Shown: positions 1-14,038 of the stretch, piece after piece
Numbering within the stretch: the stretch's first letter is position 1
How the letters are laid out: each line of letters starts with the position of its first letter
From: Patescibacteria group bacterium
GTDB taxonomy: Bacteria > Patescibacteriota > Saccharimonadia > Saccharimonadales > CAYUUR01
DNA: 64,000 bases
Assembly (NCBI GenBank): GCA_052034685.1
Contig: JBPOIH010000002.1
Location: 7,738-71,737, forward strand
Reading direction: 5' to 3'
Notes under the pieces: model-generated
What the model saw: the letters and a program-made list of their open reading frames with translations, nothing else
The model's database searches: none
What the model was told of the DNA's origin: nothing
Made by a program: the position numbers and the translations under genes

Positions 1-99
1 ATATTTAGTTTCCTCATCTTTTCCTTTAAAACCTTCTTATCGTCAAGTTCGTCCTGTTTAACAACCCGAGACTCGTGGCTTTTCATCAAGCTCTCCATC
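1..99 (-). CDS. 5' end of a CDS that continues beyond the window (MESLMKSHESRVVKQDELDDKKVLKEKMRKLNI...). It may be the frameshifted continuation of the upstream sensor gene.
   Basis: ATG at 99 (rc), preceded by AAGAGAG. The frame is open to nt 1. It starts 11 nt after the stop of 111..1220. Confidence 0.35.
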
Positions 100-110
100 T
101 CTCTTATATC

Positions 111-1220
111 TATCGAATTTGAGGTCGCATCTCCTGTACTAACAATGTATGGGCTGGATGAATTATTCGAGTTGATGGCAAACAGGCAGAACTCGACCTT
201 TATATACTTCTCGATAACCGCCCCCGACACGGATAGCAGATGACGCAAGTCAATGGTTGAAACAATCGCCTGGTTAAATTCGTTCAGAAGATCTTGAGAG
301 TCATAAGCGTCTTGGTAAAATAGCTGGTTGCTTTTCCGATTAAAATACTTCAGAAGAGGATTGAAGGTAAACGACAAAACTATAGCCAGCACAGCGTATA
401 CAATAGGTGCATACTTTGCGCTGTCTGAAAACAATCTTATGGCTTGATCCGCAAAAACAAACACAAAAATGCCTACCATCAGCCCAATACTGAGCGTCGA
501 TAAAATGTAACCGACGGAGCGCGCCACCAAAAAACGAATATCAAAGAAACGGTGCTTAATAATCGCATATGCCACCAGAATAGAGAATATCAGTACGGCG
601 AAATTGCCCAAAAGTAGCAATATTGAATCCGCCTGAACAATCCGTAAAAGAACTATTCCTGTAACTGCATTTGTCACTCCAACAATAAGTGTTGCGATTA
701 GCATAATTTTTAACTGGTTCTTTTCGTTAACTTCACGTGTTCTTTTATATTTCTTGATCAGGACGACTAAGCTCAAGAAAACCAATGCAAGACTCATTAG
801 ATCTGAAAAGTCATATAACGGACCAACATCAACCGGTAAAACTCCGTAGTCGAGAATCTCAACGCTTATTACGTTCAATTTCGTTAACGCCAAAGCCGAA
901 AACAGTCCGTAGAGCGATCCGACTATAATCTGCTTCCGCCTGTTGACACTACTGGTGTACGGAAAGACAAGGACAAGGTAATAGAGCATTAGTGGGACAA
1001 GCTGTCCAAACATTAACGCAAATCGTAAAGCCCAGAGGGCAACAATTTCCTGTGATGTGGTATCGCTAATGAATAGCAAAGTGAGCCATAAGCTGGATAT
1101 TAGGTTAAACGCTGCAAAGATTCGATTCTTAAGCCTTTTTGGGTCGTTTAAGAAAACGGCGAGCCCGATAAGGATCAATCCGATTATGGCAGGTATATAG
1201 GCAATTATCTTAAGAATCAT
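111..1220 (-). CDS. Polytopic membrane sensor-type protein (histidine-kinase N-terminal 7TM-like region plus the start of a GAF-like segment), 369 aa
   Basis: Missing from the ORF track and translated by hand: ATG 1220, TAG 111-113. The translation MILKIIAYIPAIIGLILIGLAVF... has about 7 hydrophobic helices, then KHRFFDIRFLVARS and a soluble tail. Confidence 0.6.
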
Positions 1221-1279
1221 CTTTGTTTTTCGTTGTTTTTACAAAGTTATTGTATCATGAGTGACTAAAGGTTTACACA

Positions 1280-2179
1280 ATGCAAATACAGAGAATTCCT
1301 GTGTTCCCAAATTTTTCAAAGCTTGATATTGCTCATCAAGAAGAGTTTGATCGACTGAGTAAAGATTTTGAACCATATGCAGAATTCAGCTTTCCTTGTC
1401 TTTTTTGCTGGGATACTGACGGAAGTACTCAATTATCGGTGTTGAACGGCAACCTGGTAATACGAATGCCTGACTATATTACTGGGGAGCCATTTTACTC
1501 ATTAATTGGTACGTCTATGATTGATGAATCTATGAATCAACTTCTTTCGATTACAGACTCTTTAAAACTAGTCCCAGAGGTAACAATCGATCATATCAAG
1601 CGAGCTGAGAACTTTGTTGTTACGGCCGATCGTGATCAATTTGACTATATATATTCACTTGATCAGTTAGTCAACTTACCTGGGGCACACTTCAAGGGTC
1701 GCCGAAACAAAAAGGGCCGATTCGTCAAGGTTTACGAAGATCAGCTGCATATCAGTAAGATCAAATTTGGGTCGTCCGAAACCATACCTCAACTTCTCAA
1801 TGTATTTGATCGATGGGCTAAACAACGCGGTAGGTCAATCAGTGAAGCCAGTCACGAGCGCTTGGCGCTATCACGGTTACTGACTGAGTCAACACGATTC
1901 AACTTAATTGGAATAGTCGTTGAGGTTGATGACGAAATTGTAGGATTTTCAATAAACGAGATTGTTCAAAAAAATTACGCCGTATGCCGATTTCAAAAAT
2001 CACTACTAGACATAGATCACTTGGACGCTTTTCTTTCAAACCTTGTTGCTGTTGAGTTAAAACACTACGGCTGCGATCTGATAAGCTGGGAGCAAGATCT
2101 TGGAATAGAAGGGTTGAGGCAATTTAAAGAGTCGTATAAGCCTGTTATGTTTCTTAAAAAATACACGGTTACAAAGTAG
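1280..2179 (+). CDS. Stand-alone DUF2156 protein (MprF C-terminal, aminoacyl-tRNA-dependent transferase-like fold)
   Basis: Family-typical blocks are present: FSKLDI...EFSFPCLFCWD and DRDQFDYIYSLDQLVNLPGAHFKGRRNKKGRF. Confidence 0.7.
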   Translation: MQIQRIPVFPNFSKLDIAHQEEFDRLSKDFEPYAEFSFPCLFCWDTDGSTQLSVLNGNLVIRMPDYITGEPFYSLIGTSMIDESMNQLLSITDSLKLVPEVTIDHIKRAENFVVTADRDQFDYIYSLDQLVNLPGAHFKGRRNKKGRFVKVYEDQLHISKIKFGSSETIPQLLNVFDRWAKQRGRSISEASHERLALSRLLTESTRFNLIGIVVEVDDEIVGFSINEIVQKNYAVCRFQKSLLDIDHLDAFLSNLVAVELKHYGCDLISWEQDLGIEGLRQFKESYKPVMFLKKYTVTK

Positions 2180-2181
2180 TC

Positions 2182-3297
2182 TTAGGCTACCTGCTGCTTA
2201 CTTAAAGCATAATACTCGATTGCACCCACGGGTTTATCCAGCCCACTGACTGTTGCCACACCACTTGCATTTATTGTGTCTGTAACAATATCCGGTATGT
2301 AGGTGGTACTTACTTCAGTGCACTCAAATGTAATTAGTAGGTCGGCTCCACGTTTGGCAGCCAGTTTGATACTGAAATCTACTACATCCGCAGAGTAGCG
2401 ATTTCCACGCCTAGACTCATCAGAAACTATGCCAGGGAAAATGAATATATTATTTGTAGCGTAGTACTCTTCATACTCTCTTTCAAACGCGCTCTTATTA
2501 AACCAAGGTGCTTTATTTATATCCTGTAAGAAAATCATCAAAGTTGTTATCTCGCCATCAACACGATTTACAACTTTTGCAATGTCTCGATCTTTTAGAA
2601 TATCGATTAATGCTTCCTTGTCAAACCCAGCCAGTGTCGGGTCATTCTCGCCCAATCCTTCAAATGGTTTTTCATAAAATGACCACACATGTTCAGCTTC
2701 ATCGCCCTCAATACTAGCCACAAGGGATGGGCCGTTTCTCGCATCTCTCTCGTAGATTCCCTCATCAAGCGCTTGCTCGTATGCCTCAAACATGGTTGGT
2801 GCAGTTGACACATTTTGCGCCCCACTATTAATAGCCACATGCCCTACAAAAAAATCTACCCTACTTTCGACGCCATCTTCTCCCCCAAATGCTTCAACCC
2901 TAAACCTTTGATCTAGTTTTGCCTCGCGTACAAGTTCAGCTATTGGACTTGCATTATCGTCACTATACTTTTCAGTAACAACCACTCCACCGCGCTCTAT
3001 AACTTCTTCAATCATTGATTTAACAGACTCGTGTGATTCCGCGTCAGCTGTAGGCGGGTGGACATAGCAGTAAATATCCGCATTTTTACCATAAGTCCTC
3101 TCTAGTAGAGCAGTGTTGTACCATTCAAGTGCCTCAACAGGTACAAGCACTGGGGCACTAACCTCATTTCCGTCCTGGTTTAGATAGTCGTAGTGTAAGG
3201 TTCCTGGGTTTTCTAATGCTCTTTCTAGATCTTCGCCAAAAATGCCGACAACTAGTATTTGATTATTCTCAGCCCTGTAATCGCTGTACTCGCTCAT
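2182..3297 (-). CDS. Acidic hypothetical protein; the C-terminal ~150 aa may have a GNAT-like fold
   Basis: ATG at 3297 is preceded by GGAGAG, 1 nt after the upstream stop. The motif FIFPGIVSDESRRGNRYSADVV resembles GNAT motif A. Confidence 0.55.
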   Translation of the reverse strand: MSEYSDYRAENNQILVVGIFGEDLERALENPGTLHYDYLNQDGNEVSAPVLVPVEALEWYNTALLERTYGKNADIYCYVHPPTADAESHESVKSMIEEVIERGGVVVTEKYSDDNASPIAELVREAKLDQRFRVEAFGGEDGVESRVDFFVGHVAINSGAQNVSTAPTMFEAYEQALDEGIYERDARNGPSLVASIEGDEAEHVWSFYEKPFEGLGENDPTLAGFDKEALIDILKDRDIAKVVNRVDGEITTLMIFLQDINKAPWFNKSAFEREYEEYYATNNIFIFPGIVSDESRRGNRYSADVVDFSIKLAAKRGADLLITFECTEVSTTYIPDIVTDTINASGVATVSGLDKPVGAIEYYALSKQQVA

Positions 3298-3298
3298 A

Positions 3299-4120
3299 TT
3301 ACTCTCCAACTTGGACTTTTCGCTTAATGTACTTATTATACATGCCCGTCACGCCGGCAAGCAGTAACAATCCACCAACTATTGTCTTTGGCACACCGAA
3401 AGAACCCAGGGCCTCTCCTGTCAAAACCCCTTCAGCCGTAAAGTACACACCCATACAACCTGCTGTCCTTAAGCCAGATACAACATTCTCCTCCTTGCTC
3501 CTTTCAGGATGCACAACTTGCTTTGCTGCTAGTAAAACCGCAGTTCCACCCACCATAGCAATAGCAGCACGTAAAGGTAATGGGATCTCCTTGTTACTTT
3601 CAAAATTCTTACCCGTAATTTTTTCAACACTCTGATGAACTTTCTCAAGAGCCTTTTTAGTACCTTTGCCACTTAAAACATCCGCAGCGACAACAGCAGC
3701 AAGACCTTCGATAGCAAATGTTGCTAATCCAAATGCAAACGCACTTGCAAGAGTGTTGCCTTGTGTGGCTTGGTAGGTTGCGCCGAAAACAGCATACCTA
3801 CTCGCTTCATTACCGAATGATGCTTCAAATGAAAGAAAGCCGGCCTGCAAAGTCCTTTTACTATAGTGAATTGGGTCGTTCTGTAGTGCCACTGCCGCAT
3901 ATTGCGCCCGATAGTTTACTGCTTGTGCGTGACCAACAATAAATGAGCCAGCTCTCGCGAGGAAGCCTTTGCTTACTGAATTGTCAGGGTTGTCCTGGTT
4001 AATCTCAACTATTGAGGCATTATTAATATCCAGCTCACTGACACTTTGAGACGGTATTTCTTTAAATGGGTCTAGATTTTCTTGCATAAATTTAACCTTG
4101 TCGATTGAGTTAAAAAACAC
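3299..4120 (-). CDS. Polytopic membrane protein, unknown function
   Basis: Long ORF with several hydrophobic segments, translationally coupled to 2182..3297. An alternative ATG lies at 4087. Confidence 0.55.
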   Translation of the reverse strand: MFFNSIDKVKFMQENLDPFKEIPSQSVSELDINNASIVEINQDNPDNSVSKGFLARAGSFIVGHAQAVNYRAQYAAVALQNDPIHYSKRTLQAGFLSFEASFGNEASRYAVFGATYQATQGNTLASAFAFGLATFAIEGLAAVVAADVLSGKGTKKALEKVHQSVEKITGKNFESNKEIPLPLRAAIAMVGGTAVLLAAKQVVHPERSKEENVVSGLRTAGCMGVYFTAEGVLTGEALGSFGVPKTIVGGLLLLAGVTGMYNKYIKRKVQVGE

Positions 4121-4222
4121 AGCTCCCTATCATAAGTGATAGCTCGCTGTGTTTTTCGTCTGAAAATGAACTTAGTACGACGTTGGATATGTTACTATAT
4201 TAATATGAAGTTGTCAATGTAG

Positions 4223-4253
4223 TTGACATTGGTGTAGTTATTTGGCATAGTAT
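4223..4253 (+). promoter_or_regulatory. Putative promoter of the Cys-repeat peptide gene
   Basis: A perfect TTGACA (4223-4228) sits within the inverted repeat TGTCAA-N5-TTGACA. An AT-rich -10 candidate (CATAGT/TAGTAT) lies 5-8 nt before ATG 4259, with no SD. Confidence 0.35.
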
Positions 4254-4258
4254 ATAAC

Positions 4259-4570
4259 ATGTTTAAAGAATTAAGACCTGGCACCCTAAACCGAAAGTTT
4301 ATCGCTATACCTCTGTCCGCGTTTTTTTTATTCAGCGCGCATGATACCCAATCGACAATATCGCCAAATTACGATCAGCAACAGCAAGAGGATATCAATA
4401 CAGATTTGAATAGGGTTTGTACGAATATCTATTTTGACAATCCGGATAGGTGTCAGCAAGCAGAAGACAAAACACACGATATCGGAAGTGATCCCATTTC
4501 AAACGCACAATCACTGGGAACAATTTGTACGAATATCTATTTTGACAATCCAGATAGGTGTCAGCAGTAA
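4259..4570 (+). CDS. Small secreted/anchored peptide with two identical C-x10-C repeats (CTNIYFDNPDRCQQ x2)
   Basis: N-terminal basic plus hydrophobic segment (KFIAIPLSAFFLFSA). Two 14-aa identical repeats are 36 aa apart, and the second ends the protein. Confidence 0.6.
   Translation: MFKELRPGTLNRKFIAIPLSAFFLFSAHDTQSTISPNYDQQQQEDINTDLNRVCTNIYFDNPDRCQQAEDKTHDIGSDPISNAQSLGTICTNIYFDNPDRCQQ
4417..4566 (+). repeat. Two 42-nt direct repeats (4417-4458 and 4525-4566; 1 mismatch, 108-nt period) encoding the Cys-bracketed motif
   Basis: ttgtacgaatatctattttgacaatcc(g/a)gataggtgtcagca was read directly in both places. Confidence 0.9.
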
Positions 4571-4587
4571 AACGTAAATTGACACGT

Positions 4588-5712
4588 TTACTCGGACAGG
4601 AAGATTTGGCTGGGTATTTGAAAGTCATTGAACGGAGCGCCATAAACAACTGTGTACGCACCAGCTGAGCCAAAATATACCTTGTCTCCAATCATAAGTG
4701 TCTCTGGCAAAAGTGCGTTATGCGTTATAGTGTCGCAAGAATCGCATGTCGGCCCAGTAAGAACATAGTTCGTTAGTTTGGCGTTTGGTCCATCTTTACT
4801 GGATGTTACCGGGTATTGAATACTATCTGACTCAAACATTTCGACAAATGCTTGAAACCGCCCAACATCTAGAAATAGCCAATCCTGATCTCCACGCCTG
4901 ACTTTACCAATTATTGACGATACAATCACACTACTTTCTGCCACCAAATAGCGTCCAGGCTCGCACCACAGATCAACTTCGTATGGCAGCTTAGCAACAT
5001 TTGCACGGATTCTTGCGGCAATATCCTCAATTGAAGGAATCGGCTGACAATGATCTACAGGGAAACCTCCCCCAATGTTTACCACTTTCATTTTGATGCC
5101 TGCCTTTAGCAACTCCTTCATAAGTTTTACTGTCCGCGAAAAAGCAGAGTCCCAAACTTCAAGACTTTCCGCTTGAGAGCCAACATGGAAAGCAATTCCT
5201 ATAGGCTCCAGTCCTTGCTTTCGTGCATAGGTTAAAATTGAGACAGCACTATCAATTGTGGCGCCAAACTTATCGCTTAGTTTTATCAAGCTACCTTTAT
5301 TCGATACGTTTATTCGCAAATATACTTTGCTGTGTGGTGCGTATTCGTGTAGCTTATCGACTTCCTCCGTTGAATCAACTGCATAAAATATGACTCCCTT
5401 ATCATAAGCCTGTTTTATATGACTAGGGATTTTTACTGGGTTACTGAAAATTACATCTCTTGGTTCTACATCCAGTTCGGTTAGGCGATCTAACTCACCG
5501 ATCGACGCAATCTCGAAACCACAACCTGTAGAATAAAGTCTCTTGAGGATAGGCTTAGCTGGACATGCCTTAACAGCGTAGTAAATCTTTGTATTGGGCA
5601 GGTTAGCCTTTAAGCCATAGAATTGCCGTTGAATATAATCGAGGTCAGTAACCATCAACGGAGTACTTGCAACACTACCCTTCAAGTATCGTGCATTAAG
5701 TCTGCTCGTCAT
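4588..5712 (-). CDS. PLP-dependent decarboxylase, ornithine/lysine/DAP decarboxylase family (fold type III)
   Basis: Motifs present: YYAVKACP (PLP lysine), GGGFPV, CEPGRYLVAES and GPTCDSCD. Confidence 0.85.
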   Translation of the reverse strand: MTSRLNARYLKGSVASTPLMVTDLDYIQRQFYGLKANLPNTKIYYAVKACPAKPILKRLYSTGCGFEIASIGELDRLTELDVEPRDVIFSNPVKIPSHIKQAYDKGVIFYAVDSTEEVDKLHEYAPHSKVYLRINVSNKGSLIKLSDKFGATIDSAVSILTYARKQGLEPIGIAFHVGSQAESLEVWDSAFSRTVKLMKELLKAGIKMKVVNIGGGFPVDHCQPIPSIEDIAARIRANVAKLPYEVDLWCEPGRYLVAESSVIVSSIIGKVRRGDQDWLFLDVGRFQAFVEMFESDSIQYPVTSSKDGPNAKLTNYVLTGPTCDSCDTITHNALLPETLMIGDKVYFGSAGAYTVVYGAPFNDFQIPSQIFLSE

Positions 5713-6671
5713 GTCTTGATTGTATCATCATGCCAAACATCTACTGGCCTGACACAATACATGCGCAAAAAGTTGGTAGGCGCTAACGACAACTTGATGT
5801 TTCTGAGTAATGGAAATCCCGAATCAGCCTCGATGTTTACAAATTTTACCCTCTCTTCTTTGAACCATCTTGCATACATATATATTGAAATCTCCATTAA
5901 ATATGGAAGTTCGTAACTAAAACGAGCATGTGACATTATCTTGTAATCGTCAGCAGGGCTATCTTGTAGAATCAAGAAACTATGTAGCTCTCCATCCAAA
6001 TACATGCCCAGTCCGTTAAAGCCAAGATCATTAGCCTTACGAATCGCAATCAACAGACAATCCTCTTCGTGTTTTGCGAAGTTATTCACGCCCCCCTTTA
6101 ACTTCCATCTGGAAACAAGCTCAATCAGCTCGTCAGCTTGATAAACCGAGCTCAGATCAAGCGGCGCAACTTTTATTCGCTCATTATTGTATTCATCTAG
6201 GAATCGCTTTAATTTCCACTGTTTGTGTCTTGGCAACGCATCAATATTGGCTAGTTGACGACAGTCCACAATACACTCATCGTGTTCACGCTCTGCAGTA
6301 AAGCGAAAGAGTTCTGGGTATCGGACTTGGCTAACCACATGTTCCGGGACATGAGTCAGACATTGCTTTTGTCCCTTTGACCGCTGAAAATCAAATACGG
6401 CGCAAAAAGTCTCATCGACATTATCGTTACCTAAAACCGTCAAGCCTGAATATTCATCATAACCTGGATACCACAAACATATCACCATGTTATTCCCGTG
6501 CATGGCAATTCTGCACGGCTCAAGCGCACTCCACCAAGTAAGTAAAGTACCGAAGCTTAGAGAAGCAGAAGGCTGAAATCGGCTACAAAATTGCTCGTAA
6601 AGCTCGCGGTCGGCAAGTGTGAGTTTGGTGAACTCAGGGAAGGTTTTGAAGTGAGAGGCACCTTTTTGCAT
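5709..6671 (-). CDS. Second, divergent stand-alone DUF2156 protein
   Basis: FPEFTKLTLADRELYEQF...SLSFGTLLTWW matches the N-terminal pattern of 1280..2179. ATG 6671 follows GGAG. Its 3' end makes an ATGA overlap with the decarboxylase start. Confidence 0.65.
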   Translation of the reverse strand: MQKGASHFKTFPEFTKLTLADRELYEQFCSRFQPSASLSFGTLLTWWSALEPCRIAMHGNNMVICLWYPGYDEYSGLTVLGNDNVDETFCAVFDFQRSKGQKQCLTHVPEHVVSQVRYPELFRFTAEREHDECIVDCRQLANIDALPRHKQWKLKRFLDEYNNERIKVAPLDLSSVYQADELIELVSRWKLKGGVNNFAKHEEDCLLIAIRKANDLGFNGLGMYLDGELHSFLILQDSPADDYKIMSHARFSYELPYLMEISIYMYARWFKEERVKFVNIEADSGFPLLRNIKLSLAPTNFLRMYCVRPVDVWHDDTIKT

Positions 6672-6770
6672 GATGGGCTCCAATTTGCACTTATCGTACT
6701 ATCTTTTGACAGGAATGAAAATTGCTTGTGCTAGACAGTATGTAATAACTGGTGCACAATAAAACTAAAG

Positions 6771-7136
6771 ATGAAACAAAAAGTCGCTGTTATCGAAGAT
6801 GATCTGCCAATCTGTGAGATGTATGAGTTCAAGCTACAAAACTCTGGGTTTGAGGTCAAGACGGCTCACAATGGACAGGATGGCTACAAGCTAGTAGAAG
6901 TCTTTAAGCCAGATCTTATTCTACTGGACCTCAAAATGCCCATCATGACGGGGGACGCCATGCTGCAAAAACTCCGCCAAACAGACTGGGGTGCTAACCT
7001 GCGCGTTATTATCCTGACAAATATTAGCCGCGACGAAGCACCGCACAGCCTCCGCTTCCTAAACGTTGACCGCTATATCGTCAAAGCACACCACACGCCG
7101 CAACAGGTAATAGATATCGTCAAAGAACTCATCTAG
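6771..7136 (+). CDS. Stand-alone response-regulator receiver domain protein (RR1)
   Basis: VAVIEDD...DLILLDLKMP...ILTN...KA is a CheY-like receiver. There is no output domain. Confidence 0.9.
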   Translation: MKQKVAVIEDDLPICEMYEFKLQNSGFEVKTAHNGQDGYKLVEVFKPDLILLDLKMPIMTGDAMLQKLRQTDWGANLRVIILTNISRDEAPHSLRFLNVDRYIVKAHHTPQQVIDIVKELI

Positions 7137-7233
7137 CAGTACGGCATTGTTTGAACTTTGGAGTACGACTCTCTCATCGTTTTCAGATTCTCCGAATTTA
7201 ATCACAAAGCTTAGCAATTGTTCAGAGTTTCAA

Positions 7234-7749
7234 TCACTTAGAAACTACTTTGTTAACCGCACTCCGCAATTTGCGGTTGCTCAATGCATAGATTGAGGTT
7301 AGCAATTCTAAATCACATCCATTCAAATCATTTGATGTTAGATTATTCTTTGGCCTAAAGATTGTGTGACCATACCTCAATATAATGCTTGTTATCAACG
7401 ATCTTTTGATAAGCTCTACGTTTACATCGGATGGTTCCGTAACCTTTTCTTCTATACCTAAAGTATCCGGGTTGATTTCACTGTTGAAGGCACAAGACTG
7501 TGGTATTTGCTCGAGGTTAGCCTTGGTAGCAACAAAAGAAATCTGTCTGCCCTGTGAGTCGTAAAGTTTAAAGTCGACATCCAGGATTGCTGTCCCGAAA
7601 TTATACACGTATTCAATGCTGTCGCTTATCTCATCGACAGAATAACCATCTTTATAACGATCAAGAAGGTAGTAGGGAGACTTTGTGTGGGAAGCTGCCA
7701 TGTTCATCATCTCCAGAATAACAAACTTCGCATAAATGAGTGTAACCAT
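7234..7749 (-). CDS. Hypothetical protein (171 aa) in the inserted segment
   Basis: ORF only, visibly more AT-rich than its flanks. An internal GGAG-ATG alternative start lies near 7701. Confidence 0.45.
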   Translation of the reverse strand: MVTLIYAKFVILEMMNMAASHTKSPYYLLDRYKDGYSVDEISDSIEYVYNFGTAILDVDFKLYDSQGRQISFVATKANLEQIPQSCAFNSEINPDTLGIEEKVTEPSDVNVELIKRSLITSIILRYGHTIFRPKNNLTSNDLNGCDLELLTSIYALSNRKLRSAVNKVVSK

Positions 7750-7807
7750 TCTATCGTACTGATTATCGCAAATTAAATACTATTGATATCGGGTCACTAT
7801 TATAAGC

Positions 7808-8224
7808 TCATTTTATGGACGTTTGTTGCGACGAATATGGCTCAAAATGTCGTACTTTGACAAGTGAACTTTTCCTCTTTAATAGCGCATTAATATTAAA
7901 CTTCTCTTTACCGACCTGCACTTTGTACGAGGTATGCTGTTTATCATACTCGTGAATTGTTATTTTTCCAGCAACCACATCATTAATTAGCTTTCTAAGA
8001 CTAGGGGCGAGTCGTTCAGGATGTTTTGGATTCTGGAACAATTCGATGGTGTAAGTATCATCGAAGAGGACTAGGGCTGTCCAGGGCTCAACATCAATTA
8101 CAATCTTACATGCATCACTGTTTAAAAGAGGGCTTACTTCAAGCCTTCCATCCGCACACTCAACTCGCGCCTTGTCTTCAAGGTTCTTTTTTAACTCCAA
8201 ACACAACTCGTTAAATGCTGTCAT
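7808..8224 (-). CDS. Hypothetical protein (138 aa) in the inserted segment
   Basis: ORF only; small soluble protein. Confidence 0.5.
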   Translation of the reverse strand: MTAFNELCLELKKNLEDKARVECADGRLEVSPLLNSDACKIVIDVEPWTALVLFDDTYTIELFQNPKHPERLAPSLRKLINDVVAGKITIHEYDKQHTSYKVQVGKEKFNINALLKRKSSLVKVRHFEPYSSQQTSIK

Positions 8225-8315
8225 TATGTATATGCTTCACTTTAATATATGATGGTTTATTGGAGATGAGAGTGGCTTTCATTGTTGTGGCTAGAATCTG
8301 ATAATAGTTATCATT

Positions 8316-8813
8316 CTACTTGTTTAATAGTTTGGAAAAAAATCCTCGTTTTTGTTTACGAATGTCGAGTAGCAGCCCTGATTTCAACTCTCTTCGTACA
8401 ATTCCTGGTGACTGTTGCACATTCCCAGTTTTAGTTATTTCGAAGTAGTATTTCTCGTCCTGACCAAGGATGACGCACCCGAAACTAGCGTCAGCGGTTA
8501 GTTCTTGTAGAAATGGAAGCTTCGAAAGTTGCGTCCCAATACTAATAAGTTGTTCTTCCGTACAATTACTTTTTTGAGGCATATCAACTTTAGTATTGAG
8601 GCTTATTTTCCCGTACTTCGTAGAATCATCATAAAATGCCGTTAGTGTGTCGCTTTGATAGTGCAGTGTGACCTCGACTTGTTTCTCAAAGTTACGCTCT
8701 CTTACACAATACGTAATTGGCACTTTTGACATTGCAATAAGTAGCAGGAGATTTTGGTCTAGTTTCAAAATCTGATTAACTTGGTGCTCTAGATTATTCG
8801 ACATTGTCTTCAT
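8316..8813 (-). CDS. Hypothetical protein (~165 aa) in the inserted segment
   Basis: ATG at 8813. The track's TTG start at 8834 would abut the response-regulator fragment. Confidence 0.45.
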   Translation of the reverse strand: MKTMSNNLEHQVNQILKLDQNLLLLIAMSKVPITYCVRERNFEKQVEVTLHYQSDTLTAFYDDSTKYGKISLNTKVDMPQKSNCTEEQLISIGTQLSKLPFLQELTADASFGCVILGQDEKYYFEITKTGNVQQSPGIVRRELKSGLLLDIRKQKRGFFSKLLNK

Positions 8814-8838
8814 TATCTCATAGGCAGTCGCCAAAATT

Positions 8839-8994: not shown

Positions 8995-9375
8995 ATGGTG
9001 CCAAAAAACAAAACCATCTTACTTATCGAAGACGACGAAGCCATACGCGAAATGTATCGGCTCAAATTTGAGCATTTGGGCGTAGCTATTACAACAGCAG
9101 AGGACGGTAAAGAAGCGCTAAAAATTGCCCTAAAGATCAAGCCGTCTATACTCCTGCTCGACATCAAGATCCCTACTATTGGCGGCGAAGAAGTGCTTGA
9201 AGAACTCCAAAAACACGCTTGGGCCAAAGACATGAAGGTCATCATCCTTAGCAACATCAACGAAAAAGAGGCCCCGGCCAAACTCCGTGAGCTCCACTAC
9301 GACCGTTATATGGTCAAAGCACACTTTACGCCAGCAAAGGTAGTAGCCGCAGTAGCTGAAGTTATTGCCGAGTAG
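8995..9375 (+). CDS. Stand-alone response-regulator receiver domain protein (RR2)
   Basis: ILLIEDDEAIREMY...ILLLDIKIP...ILSN...KA. Confidence 0.9.
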   Translation: MVPKNKTILLIEDDEAIREMYRLKFEHLGVAITTAEDGKEALKIALKIKPSILLLDIKIPTIGGEEVLEELQKHAWAKDMKVIILSNINEKEAPAKLRELHYDRYMVKAHFTPAKVVAAVAEVIAE

Positions 9376-9487
9376 TTTATTGCCAAGCCGCCAACAGCGT
9401 GCTAGAGTGTACCATCATGCATATACATAAGCGTACAACCAAGACCAAGGTATCGTCCTAGCTGGTTCAGCGCGTCACTAAATACGA

Positions 9488-9513
9488 CCCCCGCTCATCC
9501 AGCGGGGGTTTTT
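9488..9513 (+). terminator. Rho-independent terminator
   Basis: cccccgc-tcatcca-gcggggg followed by ttttt. Confidence 0.65.
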
Positions 9514-9580
9514 GTTGTCTGCACAGAAGCCTCACTTAGGACCAAACCAAGACATATATCACCTAAATTGAGACCTAATC

Positions 9581-9976
9581 ATGAGACCGTTTATTACACA
9601 ATCAGAGCTACTGCCCAGCCAGGACAGAGAAACCCTCGCAACGCACGAGCTAGTAGAAGCCGCAGGGCGCCCACTTATGGTGTTCCGTCAGAACGGCTGG
9701 GATAGCTACTATAACGAATGTCAGGTAGAACCCAGGCGCGTCCTACTCACCACCAGTGTTCAGCTGGTGGCAATCCCCGATGCTGGGCATCTACATATAG
9801 AACCGTGCTTTAGAGGCACATACATTACCCTCAGCGGCATACACGTTCCGTCTGGTGACGAGTACGTTTTTGGCATGCGGCCAGAACTTGGCTTTTCGTT
9901 TGAGCCAGTTCATATTGATGCAGTGACAGCCTGGCGAGAAATAGACAACACTATCGCTCTTGAAACGAGTGAGTAG
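9581..9976 (+). CDS. Hypothetical protein (131 aa)
   Basis: ORF only. Confidence 0.4.
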   Translation: MRPFITQSELLPSQDRETLATHELVEAAGRPLMVFRQNGWDSYYNECQVEPRRVLLTTSVQLVAIPDAGHLHIEPCFRGTYITLSGIHVPSGDEYVFGMRPELGFSFEPVHIDAVTAWREIDNTIALETSE

Positions 9977-9989
9977 AGAACACTCCAAC

Positions 9990-10289
9990 CTAGTCTGGCT
10001 GGACTGATCTACTCCTCAGGTAGCCTATGCAAACTCCCAGCCCGAGTGCAATAGTAATGTAATACGCCAAGCCAGCGCGAAGTTCTATGGACACTTTGTA
10101 ACCGTCTGTGACTGGTACCTTGGCAAGTTCAAGTAATTGTAATGGCCCGATTGCTACAATTTCATTCCCCGATGCGCTGGCCTGCGTCGAGCCCAAAACT
10201 GTCAATGCAAAGAAAATCAATGCAGCGAACAGTAGTGCCCCGATAATGCTGGTTGTGAGCGCTTTATATTGTTTTGATCTATCTAACAT
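9990..10289 (-). CDS. Small two-TM membrane protein, last gene of the peptide/ABC operon (immunity-like position)
   Basis: Two hydrophobic helices. Its start overlaps the upstream permease gene end (10279-10289). Confidence 0.5.
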   Translation of the reverse strand: MLDRSKQYKALTTSIIGALLFAALIFFALTVLGSTQASASGNEIVAIGPLQLLELAKVPVTDGYKVSIELRAGLAYYITIALGLGVCIGYLRSRSVQPD

Positions 10290-11616
10290 ATCCGTAACTC
10301 CTTTGTCGTTTTAATTCTATCAACCATACAACACCCTCAAACATGACTGCTAGCAACACAAAGCCCAGTACCTGCCCAGGTAGGGGAAAATATTTTCCCA
10401 TGACAAGGAGGCAGACGTACAACAAGCAGCCTCCGGCAATTACCGATAACAGTTGTCCGCCCGTATTATCTGGCGTGGAGGCAAATAGGCTGCCAGACAA
10501 AATGCCAATCGCCACAGCGAGCGATTGGAGTGCAATATAGGTAAAAATCATCCATAGCGGATCCCTGAGCGTAGCAAGCACAACAAAGAGGAGCGGTAAG
10601 CCCAGCAGTACGCTGAGTAACCTCAGCGATTGCAACTGCACCCGTACTAGGCTTCCCACTCCACTAAGATGTGCTTCTAACGATTTATACTTTCTAAAGG
10701 TGATGCGCGCATCGCAAAACACTGCCATAGTCATAAACGCAATCAGGTGCAAACAGTCTTCTACTGATATAGTTGCTGGGTTTTTTCTCATAAACAAAGC
10801 AGCTATACATAAGACAATGAGACTAAACACGAACGACGTCTGAGACTTTTTGTTGCGCAAGAACTTGATAGCGAACCAGAAATGCACGATGCAAAACTGT
10901 GGCCAACGCAGCCATACAGCCGGTAATCGGGCTCGGTACATGTACCGTTGCAAAAAAACAGCCGACAGAACTGCAATTAAAAGACAAACACCACACAGTA
11001 GGTACACATAGTTGAGCATGGCTATGTTAGATTGCGTAATGAATACCTTGTTTATTATGCGCCCCATACCGTATACCACTAGCCCAAAACTCGCGAACTT
11101 TAGGAAGAAGTAGCGCGTATAGGTAGCCGTTACTAAAGCCAGGCAACTAAAACAACCGAGTGCCAAAGTCAGCATAGTAAACACACTTGAAACTGAGTTA
11201 ACACCAGCAATGTAAAGCGCTGCAGGCATGAGGAAAATATAGCCAACAACGGCGAGTAGAAGCGCAGAGATATTGTGAAGTAAGTACCTTTTAGGTCGAG
11301 ATACTGGCAGCAGTGCGAGTACTTTAAGTGAGTTATTGTTTCGCAGTTCCACCATGCCGCTTGCACCAAAGGAAAATAAGACCAATCCAGTAACCAGGAA
11401 GCCGAAGATTGTAATCATCGCTAGTACAAGACCCTGCGGTAGATCGCCACTAATCCCCATTGTCCGTATAAACTCACGTGCACAAAACCCAAGTACGCCC
11501 GCAGCAATACAGCTAAATCCAAGCTTATAGGCGGCCGCCTGAGCTGGAGATGAGGCGTTTGCACCAAAGGTACTAATGATTACCGTTCGTAGAAGCATGC
11601 TAATCTTCCAGCCCAT
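10279..11616 (-). CDS. Polytopic permease (445 aa, about 10-12 TM), partner of the ABC ATPase
   Basis: Highly hydrophobic throughout. It overlaps the ATPase gene by 17 nt. Confidence 0.65.
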   Translation of the reverse strand: MGWKISMLLRTVIISTFGANASSPAQAAAYKLGFSCIAAGVLGFCAREFIRTMGISGDLPQGLVLAMITIFGFLVTGLVLFSFGASGMVELRNNNSLKVLALLPVSRPKRYLLHNISALLLAVVGYIFLMPAALYIAGVNSVSSVFTMLTLALGCFSCLALVTATYTRYFFLKFASFGLVVYGMGRIINKVFITQSNIAMLNYVYLLCGVCLLIAVLSAVFLQRYMYRARLPAVWLRWPQFCIVHFWFAIKFLRNKKSQTSFVFSLIVLCIAALFMRKNPATISVEDCLHLIAFMTMAVFCDARITFRKYKSLEAHLSGVGSLVRVQLQSLRLLSVLLGLPLLFVVLATLRDPLWMIFTYIALQSLAVAIGILSGSLFASTPDNTGGQLLSVIAGGCLLYVCLLVMGKYFPLPGQVLGFVLLAVMFEGVVWLIELKRQRSYGYVR

Positions 11617-12328
11617 ATACTTGTTTGAATTTGTTTTCTAAACTCCCATGATCAGCTAGAACATTCGCTGTGTCGTCAGCGTAGACTAACCTTCCAGCAT
11701 GTATCATCAATGTCTGGTCAGAAAATCTTTCTGCCCACCATAGATCATGCGTAGATGCCAGCACGCTACCCTGATTGTTTACAAAATCCTTCATAAGACG
11801 TTCCACTTGAATGATTGCCACTGGGTCAAGTCCATTGCGGAGCTCATCAACAATCAAAACTTTTGGTTGATGTGCCAGTGCAGCGATAATTTGCAGTTTC
11901 TTCTTATTTCCATGACTAAGGGACCCGATCTGTAAGCGCCGATTCTTAAAATCTAATTGGTCGCAAAGTTGATTAATGCGTTTGTCAACCCCACGGCCGT
12001 AGATGTCAGAGAGCAAAACAAAAAACTCATCAGCGCAAAGTTCTGGTATTACCCAGTTATCATCGTCAGGGATAAACCCCATAATCGAATTGATACGTTT
12101 TTGGGTTTTAAAGGACGATTCTATGCCGCAGATCCTAACGCGCCCACTATACGCCGATATTAATCCCACCACTGCTTCAATAAGCGTTGTTTTACCGCTG
12201 CCGTTCGCACCGACAAGGCAAGTTACCTTGCCCTTTTGTAGCCGCACATTATCGACTTGTAGGGTGAAGTTCTTGCTCCGGTTAATAGTGAGGTTCTCGA
12301 TCACTAAAACATTACTACTTTGTCTCAT
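11600..12328 (-). CDS. ABC transporter ATP-binding protein (ABC-2/DrrA-like)
   Basis: Walker A GANGSGKTT, signature LSHGNKKKL and Walker B LIVDE. Confidence 0.9.
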   Translation of the reverse strand: MRQSSNVLVIENLTINRSKNFTLQVDNVRLQKGKVTCLVGANGSGKTTLIEAVVGLISAYSGRVRICGIESSFKTQKRINSIMGFIPDDDNWVIPELCADEFFVLLSDIYGRGVDKRINQLCDQLDFKNRRLQIGSLSHGNKKKLQIIAALAHQPKVLIVDELRNGLDPVAIIQVERLMKDFVNNQGSVLASTHDLWWAERFSDQTLMIHAGRLVYADDTANVLADHGSLENKFKQVYGLED

Positions 12329-13666: not shown

Positions 13667-14038
13667 ATGTCAGTCAAAATCGCCATTATTGAAGACGATC
13701 AAGCGATTTCTCAAATGTACCGTATTAAGTTTGAGGCGGAAGGTTATAGTGTGGAAACCGCCGAAAACGGCAAGCTCGGGCTAGAACTCTGTGAAAAGAT
13801 GCGCCCAGAGATCATACTGCTCGACCTGATGATGCCAGAAATGACCGGAGACGTCATGCTCGACAAACTCCGTAAAACCACCTGGGGCAAAAGCATCAAG
13901 GTTGTTATCCTTACCAACATGGGCGAACAAGAAATTCCTGAAAGCGTCAAAAAGCTTGGTGTTTCTGCGGTAATCCTCAAGGCCGATATGACGCCGCGCC
14001 AGGTTGCAGAACTCGTCAAAAAACAACTCGGAAACTAA
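13667..14038 (+). CDS. Stand-alone response-regulator receiver domain protein (RR3)
   Basis: IAIIEDDQAISQMY...IILLDLMMP...ILTN...KA. Confidence 0.9.
   Translation: MSVKIAIIEDDQAISQMYRIKFEAEGYSVETAENGKLGLELCEKMRPEIILLDLMMPEMTGDVMLDKLRKTTWGKSIKVVILTNMGEQEIPESVKKLGVSAVILKADMTPRQVAELVKKQLGN

Follow-up and report, generated by a model that had tools for sequence, protein, structure and literature searches.

The window analysed here, that is, the whole 64,000-nt stretch of Saccharibacteria DNA introduced above, carries near one end a small plus-strand gene (4259–4570) for a 103-aa protein in which the Cys-bracketed sequence CTNIYFDNPDRCQQ occurs twice, with the second copy forming the exact C-terminus (Table 1). 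The stop codon (4568–4570) lies directly 3' of unit 2. A direct-repeat search returned one family, at 4416–4458 and 4524–4566 (43 nt, one mismatch, 98% identity, start-to-start distance 108 nt); with a single mismatch, a 43-nt repeat is well outside chance expectation. In register, the two 14-codon units are identical at 40/42 nt, and both differences are synonymous (CCG/CCA for Pro and CAA/CAG for Gln). This near-identity at the DNA level indicates that the pair was homogenised or re-duplicated recently within the window lineage. The back-translated motif TAYTTYGAYAAYCC has two sites in the whole window, both being the units. Reading and translation of the open reading frame (ORF) confirm the two identical 14-mers, the second of them C-terminal, that were reported in a preliminary description of this DNA; the repeat coordinates given there (4417–4458 and 4525–4566) are one base out of register, although the single mismatch is correct for those coordinates.

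The preliminary description had also noted a signal-like N-terminus, and the anatomy of a Sec-type signal peptide (positive n-region, 14-residue h-region, and small-residue c-region) is recognisable in every member of the family described below. In the window protein the predicted n-region carries K3, R6, R12, and K13, the h-region is FIAIPLSAFFLFSA (14 aa), and cleavage is predicted after S26 or A27 (FS-A↓H); the sites of the relatives are canonical (VAA↓E in P0002 and P0003, and SGA↓T in the protein of locus L011). Kyte-Doolittle hydropathy of the window protein reaches an 11-residue maximum of 2.38 at residue 14 and a 19-residue maximum of 1.12, the latter ranging from 1.1 to 1.5 across the Cys-type members; because the 19-residue maximum is low, the hydrophobic stretch is too short to serve as a membrane anchor. 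The calculated mature protein is acidic (pI 4.07; loop pI 4.21) and has a mass of ~8.7 kDa (~8705 Da with two disulfides). Calculated oxidised average masses are 1458.6 Da for CTNIYFDNPDRC, the 12-residue loop, and 1714.8 Da for the 14-mer.

The peptide gene has its own strong promoter in the window, and a promoter of its own is conserved in four of four loci (the window, L001, L005, and L011), with the -10 box ending 6–8 nt before the ATG. Those of L001 and L005, the loci of P0002 and P0003, read TTTACA-17-TATTAT and end 6 nt before the ATG, and that of L011 reads TTGCAA-17-TATAAT and ends 8 nt before it. No Shine-Dalgarno sequence was found upstream of the ORF, and since the -10 box adjoins the ATG, the peptide mRNA is likely to be leaderless. 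Within the window, 12/52 long ORFs (~23%) have a -10-like hexamer ending 5–9 nt before the start, compared with 4% at random positions; leaderless mRNAs therefore appear to be common in this Saccharibacterium. No intrinsic terminator was identified after the peptide gene, where downstream folding is no better than that of shuffled sequence (z = -0.29).

The TTGACA at 4223–4228 and its inverted partner TGTCAA at 4212–4217 (6-nt arms, 5-nt spacer) are real, but the operator that the preliminary description proposed for this inverted repeat was not upheld: the two arms are simply -35 boxes, one for each of a pair of divergent promoters, and L001 and L005 do not share the arrangement. At those loci the divergent promoter is a perfect TTGACA-17-TATAAT placed 35 nt from the plus-strand -35 box, with no palindrome.

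Table 1. Features of the peptide gene, its neighbours, and the Cys-free relative (window coordinates unless a locus is named)
Feature	Position	Strand	Description
Divergent promoter-like site	4189..4217	-	TTGACA, 17-nt spacer, TAACAT; faces minus-strand membrane-protein gene
Peptide-gene promoter	4223..4251	+	Sigma-70-type: TTGACA, 17-nt spacer, CATAGT with TG upstream; -10 ends 7 nt before ATG
Peptide ORF	4259..4570	+	103 aa plus stop codon; complete, ATG start, first-start ORF in frame
Sec-type signal peptide (predicted)	4259..4339	+	Residues 1–27; sequence features, hydropathy
Pro-region	4340..4417	+	Residues 28–53; acidic, Gln-rich, poorly conserved
Unit 1	4418..4459	+	CTNIYFDNPDRCQQ; Cys54 and Cys65 (C-x10-C)
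Linker	4460..4525	+	Residues 68–89; sequence poorly conserved, length conserved
Unit 2	4526..4567	+	CTNIYFDNPDRCQQ; Cys90 and Cys101; C-terminal end
Truncated HisKA_7TM kinase	before 1220	-	Neighbour
DUF2156/LPG_synthase_C protein	1280–2179	+	Neighbour
375-aa protein	2182–3309	-	Tandem GNAT, no Pfam family
Membrane protein, 273 aa	3299–4120	-	Neighbour
Pyridoxal phosphate (PLP)-dependent Orn/DAP-type decarboxylase	4588–5712	-	Neighbour
Second, weaker/divergent DUF2156 protein	5709–6683	-	Neighbour
Receiver-only response regulator	6771–7136	+	Neighbour
P0062, Cys-free relative	L011 7140–7394	+	84 aa, database singleton

Relatives and conservation of the twin units

Protein relatives were sought with a word-indexed search of 5.8 billion proteins and by running HMMER exhaustively over 1.84 billion cluster representatives, with a hidden Markov model (HMM) profile built from two sequences. 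The word search recovered P0001, which is identical to the window protein, and one relative, P0002 (113 aa, 32% identical); the exhaustive search added P0003 (112 aa) as the sole genuine further relative. P0002 and P0003 are ~32–35% identical to the window protein, and these three clusters are the whole of the Cys-type family found. Both Cys-bracketed units are kept in the only two other clusters, so that one of the refuting outcomes named in the preliminary description, a repeat that no homologue conserves, does not apply. In a scan of genome contigs (one genome per species), the only genuine match was in the uncultured Candidatus Saccharibacteria metagenome-assembled genome GCA_964448075.1 (NCBI), where the window protein is also annotated as a gene; the other 68 pattern matches encode no relatives. 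Viral contigs and phage and plasmid collections contained no relatives, Pfam and NCBIfam scans returned no family matching the peptide, and the best matches of the family profile in the PDB were T-cell receptor chains (E = 0.089), which are spurious. No description of the protein was found in the literature searched, including that on Saccharibacteria peptide signalling.

Two further candidates were rejected. The third HMM match, P0004, is an LDL-A/GPCR-like protein of 5042 aa from a duplicated eukaryotic assembly; CHEIYFDVPNIC occurs in it six times, and this repetition inflates the score. The sequence is also C-x10-C and unit-like, a resemblance that was judged coincidental. The single match of a scan of JGI metagenome contigs, L006 (ICTNIYFDSPHSC), is antisense to a real Cys-rich gene (1283–1660, minus strand) and is spurious.

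Exactly two units are present in every Cys-type member, with the family consensus C-[TRQ]-[NGK]-[IL]-Y-F-D-N-P-[DG]-R-C, and the first Cys residues of the two units are 36 residues apart in all three. In P0002 and P0003 the second unit stops 2–3 residues short of the stop codon, such that the final unit ends 0–3 residues from the stop in four of four proteins (the three Cys-type members and that of L011). In the mature protein, strong conservation is confined to the motif L/V/I-C-x2-[IL]-Y-F-D-N-P-x-R-C, which occurs once internally and once at the C-terminus. Outside the loops, identity between lineages falls to ~15%, and the alignment has three indels in the pro-region and none in the linker. 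Around the six units, too small a number for judging recognition or cleavage sequences, the only shared positions are -1, which is hydrophobic (V/I/L), and the third residue past unit 1, which is always Ala.

At the DNA level, the unit pair of L001 is identical at 27/42 nt and that of L005 at 24/42, with 5–6 of 9 same-residue codons differing synonymously; since the units diverge at synonymous sites, selection acts on the peptide and not on a DNA motif. The second unit of L001 reads TTTGATAAC, and the TTGACA of window unit 2 is absent there. Between L001 and L005 the ratio of non-synonymous to synonymous change (pN/pS) is 0.31 for the whole gene; it drops to 0 in unit 1 and to 0.12 in the signal peptide, and rises to ~0.48 across the pro-region and linker, all from small counts. 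As judged from these ratios, this is a real gene under purifying selection, in which the signal peptide and the loops would matter most.

A remote, Cys-free relative, P0062, is encoded in the same genomic slot of locus L011, where the tandem-GNAT protein is 53% identical to that of the window. P0062 has a canonical signal peptide (SGA↓TEQ) followed by two ELG[ND]NLRFDS units, the second of which is again the exact C-terminus. Smith-Waterman scores against P0002 and P0003 are 46–54, compared with a shuffle mean of 22–25 (sd 4), and 0–2 of 2000 shuffles scored as high; hhalign gave P = 9e-4, with the alignment collinear over both units. Against the window protein alone, the similarity is not significant. 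In a small-ORF screen of the window and all loci (1206 ORFs), the genes for the three Cys-type proteins and P0062 were the only four with this architecture, at 6/7 identities or more. The core common to the Cys and Cys-free branches is L-[CG]-x2-[LI]-x-F-D-[NS], the loop-closing NPxRC being restricted to the Cys branch. P0062 widens the family and weakens the idea that the disulfide was essential to an ancestral function; it also fits well with an exported propeptide that was duplicated in tandem and whose putative active end lies at the C-terminus.

The genomic slot and the neighbouring module

The genes around the peptide gene belong to a locus that is far more widespread than the peptide itself. 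The nine homologous contexts that were looked up share the order folD, murI, Mur ligase, one to three receiver-only regulators, a variable slot, pyruvoyl arginine decarboxylase, membrane protein, tandem GNAT, a second variable slot, DUF2156, and HisKA_7TM kinase; across the sampled loci the membrane protein of the module has ~250 aa and the tandem-GNAT protein 375–420 aa. The preliminary description had called the peptide gene the only plus-strand gene in its cluster, which holds for 2182–6683; the flanking DUF2156 and response-regulator genes are on the plus strand as well.

The 375-aa protein has 57 homologous clusters, and its AlphaFold model is confident (pLDDT 92). In Foldseek the model matches tandem-GNAT transferases, among them VipF, FemX, the C-terminal (DUF2156) domain of MprF, and N-myristoyltransferase (E 1e-7 to 1e-5, TM-scores 0.3–0.46), and in relatives of 600–640 aa the tandem-GNAT protein is fused to the membrane protein in an MprF-like architecture. 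On these structural resemblances, the uncharacterised module enzymes look like an envelope or lipid aminoacylation–acylation system rather than maturases of a ribosomally synthesised and post-translationally modified peptide (RiPP).

No relative of the peptide is present in eight distinct loci that have the module (L007, L008/L009, L010, L012, L013, L014, L016, and L018). At L001 and L005, the peptide gene is accompanied by a divergent gene for an FtsX/MacB-like permease, also found adjoining the gene in L002, and by a response-regulator gene ~90 nt downstream on the same strand; both loci are without the PLP decarboxylase and the second DUF2156 gene. The permease, whose matches are below Pfam thresholds, is the only candidate for a dedicated processing or export protein, and none is present beside the window gene. 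BLASTP of the window 273-aa membrane protein against a 325-aa protein of L001 gave E = 0.068, a borderline value for homology. Because the module occurs without the peptide and the neighbours differ in L001 and L005, the peptide gene is not part of the enzyme cluster; to judge from these gene orders, it is an accessory gene in a variable slot between CheY-like regulators and the MprF-like module with its 7TM histidine kinase.

The window genome lacks the pyruvoyl-dependent arginine decarboxylase that every other sampled locus has. The PLP decarboxylase and the extra DUF2156 gene are located on the opposite side of the peptide gene, in what looks like a non-orthologous replacement. In L007 a homologue of this enzyme (6775–7311, plus strand) was missed by the source gene calls and accounts for an apparent 700-nt gap.

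L007 also carries, between the tandem-GNAT and DUF2156 genes, a 70-aa ORF (9400–9612, plus strand) followed by a 321-aa match to ATP-grasp peptide maturases (9666–10631, plus strand; TIGR04187/04185/04184, E 1e-41 to 1e-47, below curated cut-offs), a probable graspetide RiPP pair. Since this pair is also inserted there, the locus repeatedly hosts peptide cargo.

Candidate functions of the gene product

We posit that the gene product is probably an extracellular ligand or pheromone-like propeptide. It would derive from tandem duplication of a module comprising a weakly conserved amphipathic stretch and the conserved motif. After Sec export, the signal would be removed near residues 26–27 to leave the acidic mature protein, and oxidation of C54–C65 and C90–C101 would close two 12-residue disulfide loops outside the cell, which would act as functional epitopes binding a conserved partner. 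For the subsequent fate of the loops we tentatively favour a Phr-like route, in which extracellular trimming would free the C-terminal cyclic peptide, and possibly the internal one too, to yield one or two cyclic peptides of ~1.5–1.7 kDa; a single cut would be enough to release the C-terminal unit. This route is preferred because conservation is concentrated in the units, because the last unit is always C-terminal, and because the design is an established one, Sec-exported Phr propeptides with tandemly duplicated pheromones being matured by extracellular proteases (PMC11343458).

The likeness to Phr (Rap-Phr, RRNPPA, in Bacillota and phages) extends to the Sec signal, a weakly conserved pro-region, and two motif copies with the last at or next to the C-terminus; Phr itself matures without a dedicated maturase gene (PMC11343458). 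However, a Phr pheromone is a linear peptide of 5–6 residues that has no Cys, whereas putative 12-residue disulfide loops are encoded here; Phr adjoins the gene for its cytoplasmic TPR receptor (Rap) and is re-imported by Opp, whereas scans of every neighbour against Pfam and NCBIfam returned neither a TPR protein nor one of the Rap, NprR, or PlcR type. The present protein also comes from a Saccharibacterium and shows no similarity in sequence to Phr. Secreted and possibly cyclised peptides encoded near a multi-pass kinase (here HisKA_7TM) and regulators also recall Agr AIP/AgrC and ComC/ComD, but here most related loci have the kinase and regulators and lack the peptide, the receiver-only regulators have no DNA-binding output domain, no processing exporter of the AgrB or ComAB type was recognised beyond the sub-threshold permease candidate, and two cores and a Sec signal are combined in one precursor. 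The adjacent 7TM kinase is a tempting candidate receptor, yet it is found in most relatives without the peptide.

Eukaryotic single-disulfide signalling peptides, as listed in PMC13261660, likewise have a signal peptide and pro-region before a C-terminal disulfide loop, and multi-copy neuropeptide and plant precursors exist. These differ in being processed at dibasic sites in the secretory pathway, and with no homology the comparison is an analogy. Somatostatin-14 also has a C-x10-C loop. Twin Cx9C (CHCH) proteins share four Cys as two evenly spaced pairs in a small protein; they belong to the mitochondrial intermembrane space, and the units here are Cx10C. Each Cys pair moreover encloses an invariant Asp-Asn-Pro, which a continuous helix could not accommodate, so that a CHCH helical hairpin was rejected.

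Several observations weigh against a trimmed, pheromone-like propeptide. The residue at -3 of the best-placed cleavage site in the window protein is Phe or Leu. Copy number is two in every member, without variation, and no conserved protease site is recognisable around the six units beyond the hydrophobic residue before the Cys and the Ala after unit 1. The unit core is nearly invariant between lineages in which FolD is only 57% identical, and classical pheromones usually diversify. AlphaFold2 gave no usable model from the three-sequence alignment (pLDDT 45, pTM 0.26). No protease, dedicated exporter, or receptor gene is conserved beside the peptide gene, and the kinase and response regulators, being present in the eight other loci without the peptide, are independent of it. 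Lastly, the length of the linker is conserved without indels, which suits an intact two-repeat protein at least as well.

Such a protein, exported and left uncleaved, is a possible alternative that we consider somewhat less likely: the active species would be the intact secreted or wall-associated protein of ~8.7 kDa, stabilised by disulfides and presenting two identical loops, and it could bind the host bacterium or some partner on a cell surface as a bivalent ligand or as an adhesin. The 36-residue spacing of the units is exact across lineages of ~32% identity, and the indel-free linker contrasts with the three indels of the pro-region. In both halves, and also in L011, the repeat module moreover continues on the N-terminal side of the Cys with an amphipathic stretch (D-h-x2-A-x2-L-h-C), and two identical copies would suit bivalent binding; no conserved cleavage motif or protease gene is recognisable. 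However, conservation outside the loops is near neutral (the pN/pS of ~0.48 and the ~15% identity given above), AlphaFold gave no confident fold, albeit from an alignment of only three sequences, and in each of the four proteins the last unit is placed at the very C-terminal end, as is usual for peptides that undergo maturation.

We consider it unlikely that the product is a Sec-dependent bacteriocin or host-directed toxin, for which the FtsX-like permease or the ABC transporter at 10279–12328 would provide immunity or export. The gene is a sporadic accessory gene for a small secreted Cys-containing peptide, the permease is divergently transcribed in L001, L002, and L005, and the ABC ATPase and membrane protein lie 6–8 kb downstream in the window. 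The mature product is nevertheless strongly acidic (pI ~4.1, with a net negative core), unlike membrane-active class II bacteriocins; the permease, with its sub-threshold matches, has no ATPase partner and no homologue beside the window gene, and phage, plasmid, and viral collections gave no match.

The preliminary description had likened the gene to multi-core RiPP precursors, and maturation by the surrounding cluster, with cores modified by the DUF2156 aminoacyl-transferase-like proteins and the PLP-dependent decarboxylase, now appears very improbable. Near-identical cores separated by variable spacers in one precursor are indeed characteristic of multi-core RiPPs (the cyanobactin PatE type; the L007 graspetide precursor with its ATP-grasp maturase), the neighbours include transferase-fold proteins (DUF2156 twice, and the 375-aa tandem GNAT resembling FemX and MprF) along with the decarboxylase, and the related locus L007 has a maturase and small ORF in the same region. 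RiPPs, however, have a leader recognised by co-encoded cytoplasmic maturases, whereas the N-terminus here reads as a Sec signal and no maturase is co-conserved: the enzyme module is kept in the eight Saccharibacteria-type loci that have no peptide relative, the homologues in L001 and L005 are flanked instead by the permease and response regulator, and the MprF-like fusions point to lipid or envelope modification.

That the ORF is not a gene, but a chance ORF or a regulatory DNA repeat such as repeated TTGACA sites, is effectively refuted: five TTGACA-like hexamers do occur within 370 nt and the ORF has no Shine-Dalgarno sequence, yet ORF, frame, and units are conserved as protein with synonymous divergence, the corresponding unit of L001 has no TTGACA, the overall pN/pS is low, and promoters of the leaderless type are frequent in this genome.

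Saccharibacteria are ultra-small epibionts with reduced genomes, and to our knowledge very little is known of the molecules that they secrete toward each other or toward their actinobacterial hosts; the gene offers a concrete, synthesisable candidate for such a molecule, in the form of a peptide of 12–14 residues. Tandem motifs in a small exported protein or propeptide are a known design; new here are the sequence family, its putative disulfide-loop units, and the occurrence in Saccharibacteria. Should the loops be freed and then sensed, as the favoured propeptide reading would have it, peptide pheromone signalling, including the duplicated design of Bacillus Phr, would extend to the Candidate Phyla Radiation; if they are not, the gene would add one more lineage-restricted small secreted protein. 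A wider proposal, to which we give little credence, is that the disulfide and linear (L011) branches together make up an undescribed class of Sec-exported duplicated signalling propeptides, encoded in a variable slot next to the conserved locus of the 7TM kinase and CheY-like regulators; released peptides of ~1.5 kDa would be sensed by that kinase or by the host and would coordinate epibiont behaviour. If true, no earlier peptide pheromone system would be on record for this radiation. Interest is tempered by the tiny size of the family (three lineages), by a function that is read from sequence, and by the unsupported link to a RiPP cluster. The peptide is now set apart from the neighbouring MprF-like/decarboxylase/histidine-kinase module.

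Further features of the region

A hairpin at window 4113–4156 has 20-nt arms with 85% complementarity, T/U runs on both sides, and a folding energy of -27.1 kcal/mol (z = -4.2 vs shuffles); Rfam returned no match for it at gathering thresholds. Read along the minus strand, the hairpin comes after the divergent promoter (4217 to 4189) and before the membrane-protein gene, whose start is ATG 4087 or GTG 4120; UUUUUU follows it directly. It looks like a terminator or attenuator in a 5' leader; alternatively, it could stop transcripts reading through from the decarboxylase operon, which would otherwise run antisense to the peptide gene. By a rough count that takes the first ATG of each ORF, as does the count of -10-like hexamers above, only ~35% of the long ORFs of the window have a Shine-Dalgarno-like core.

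Three paralogous receiver-only (CheY-like) regulators are encoded on the plus strand within 7 kb (6771–7136, 8995–9375, and 13667–14038), the last being closest to the regulator that follows the L001 peptide gene (69% identity). Between the window regulators are three consecutive minus-strand ORFs without a family match (7234–8834) and the ABC ATPase and membrane protein (10279–12328). The G+C fraction is 0.40–0.44 in window 1–8000, compared with 0.45–0.50 over most of the window, and a large serine recombinase gene is located ~8–10 kb upstream of the peptide gene in the NCBI contig, outside the window (L003 1–1666). Positions 1–8000 may thus belong to a variable or acquired region.

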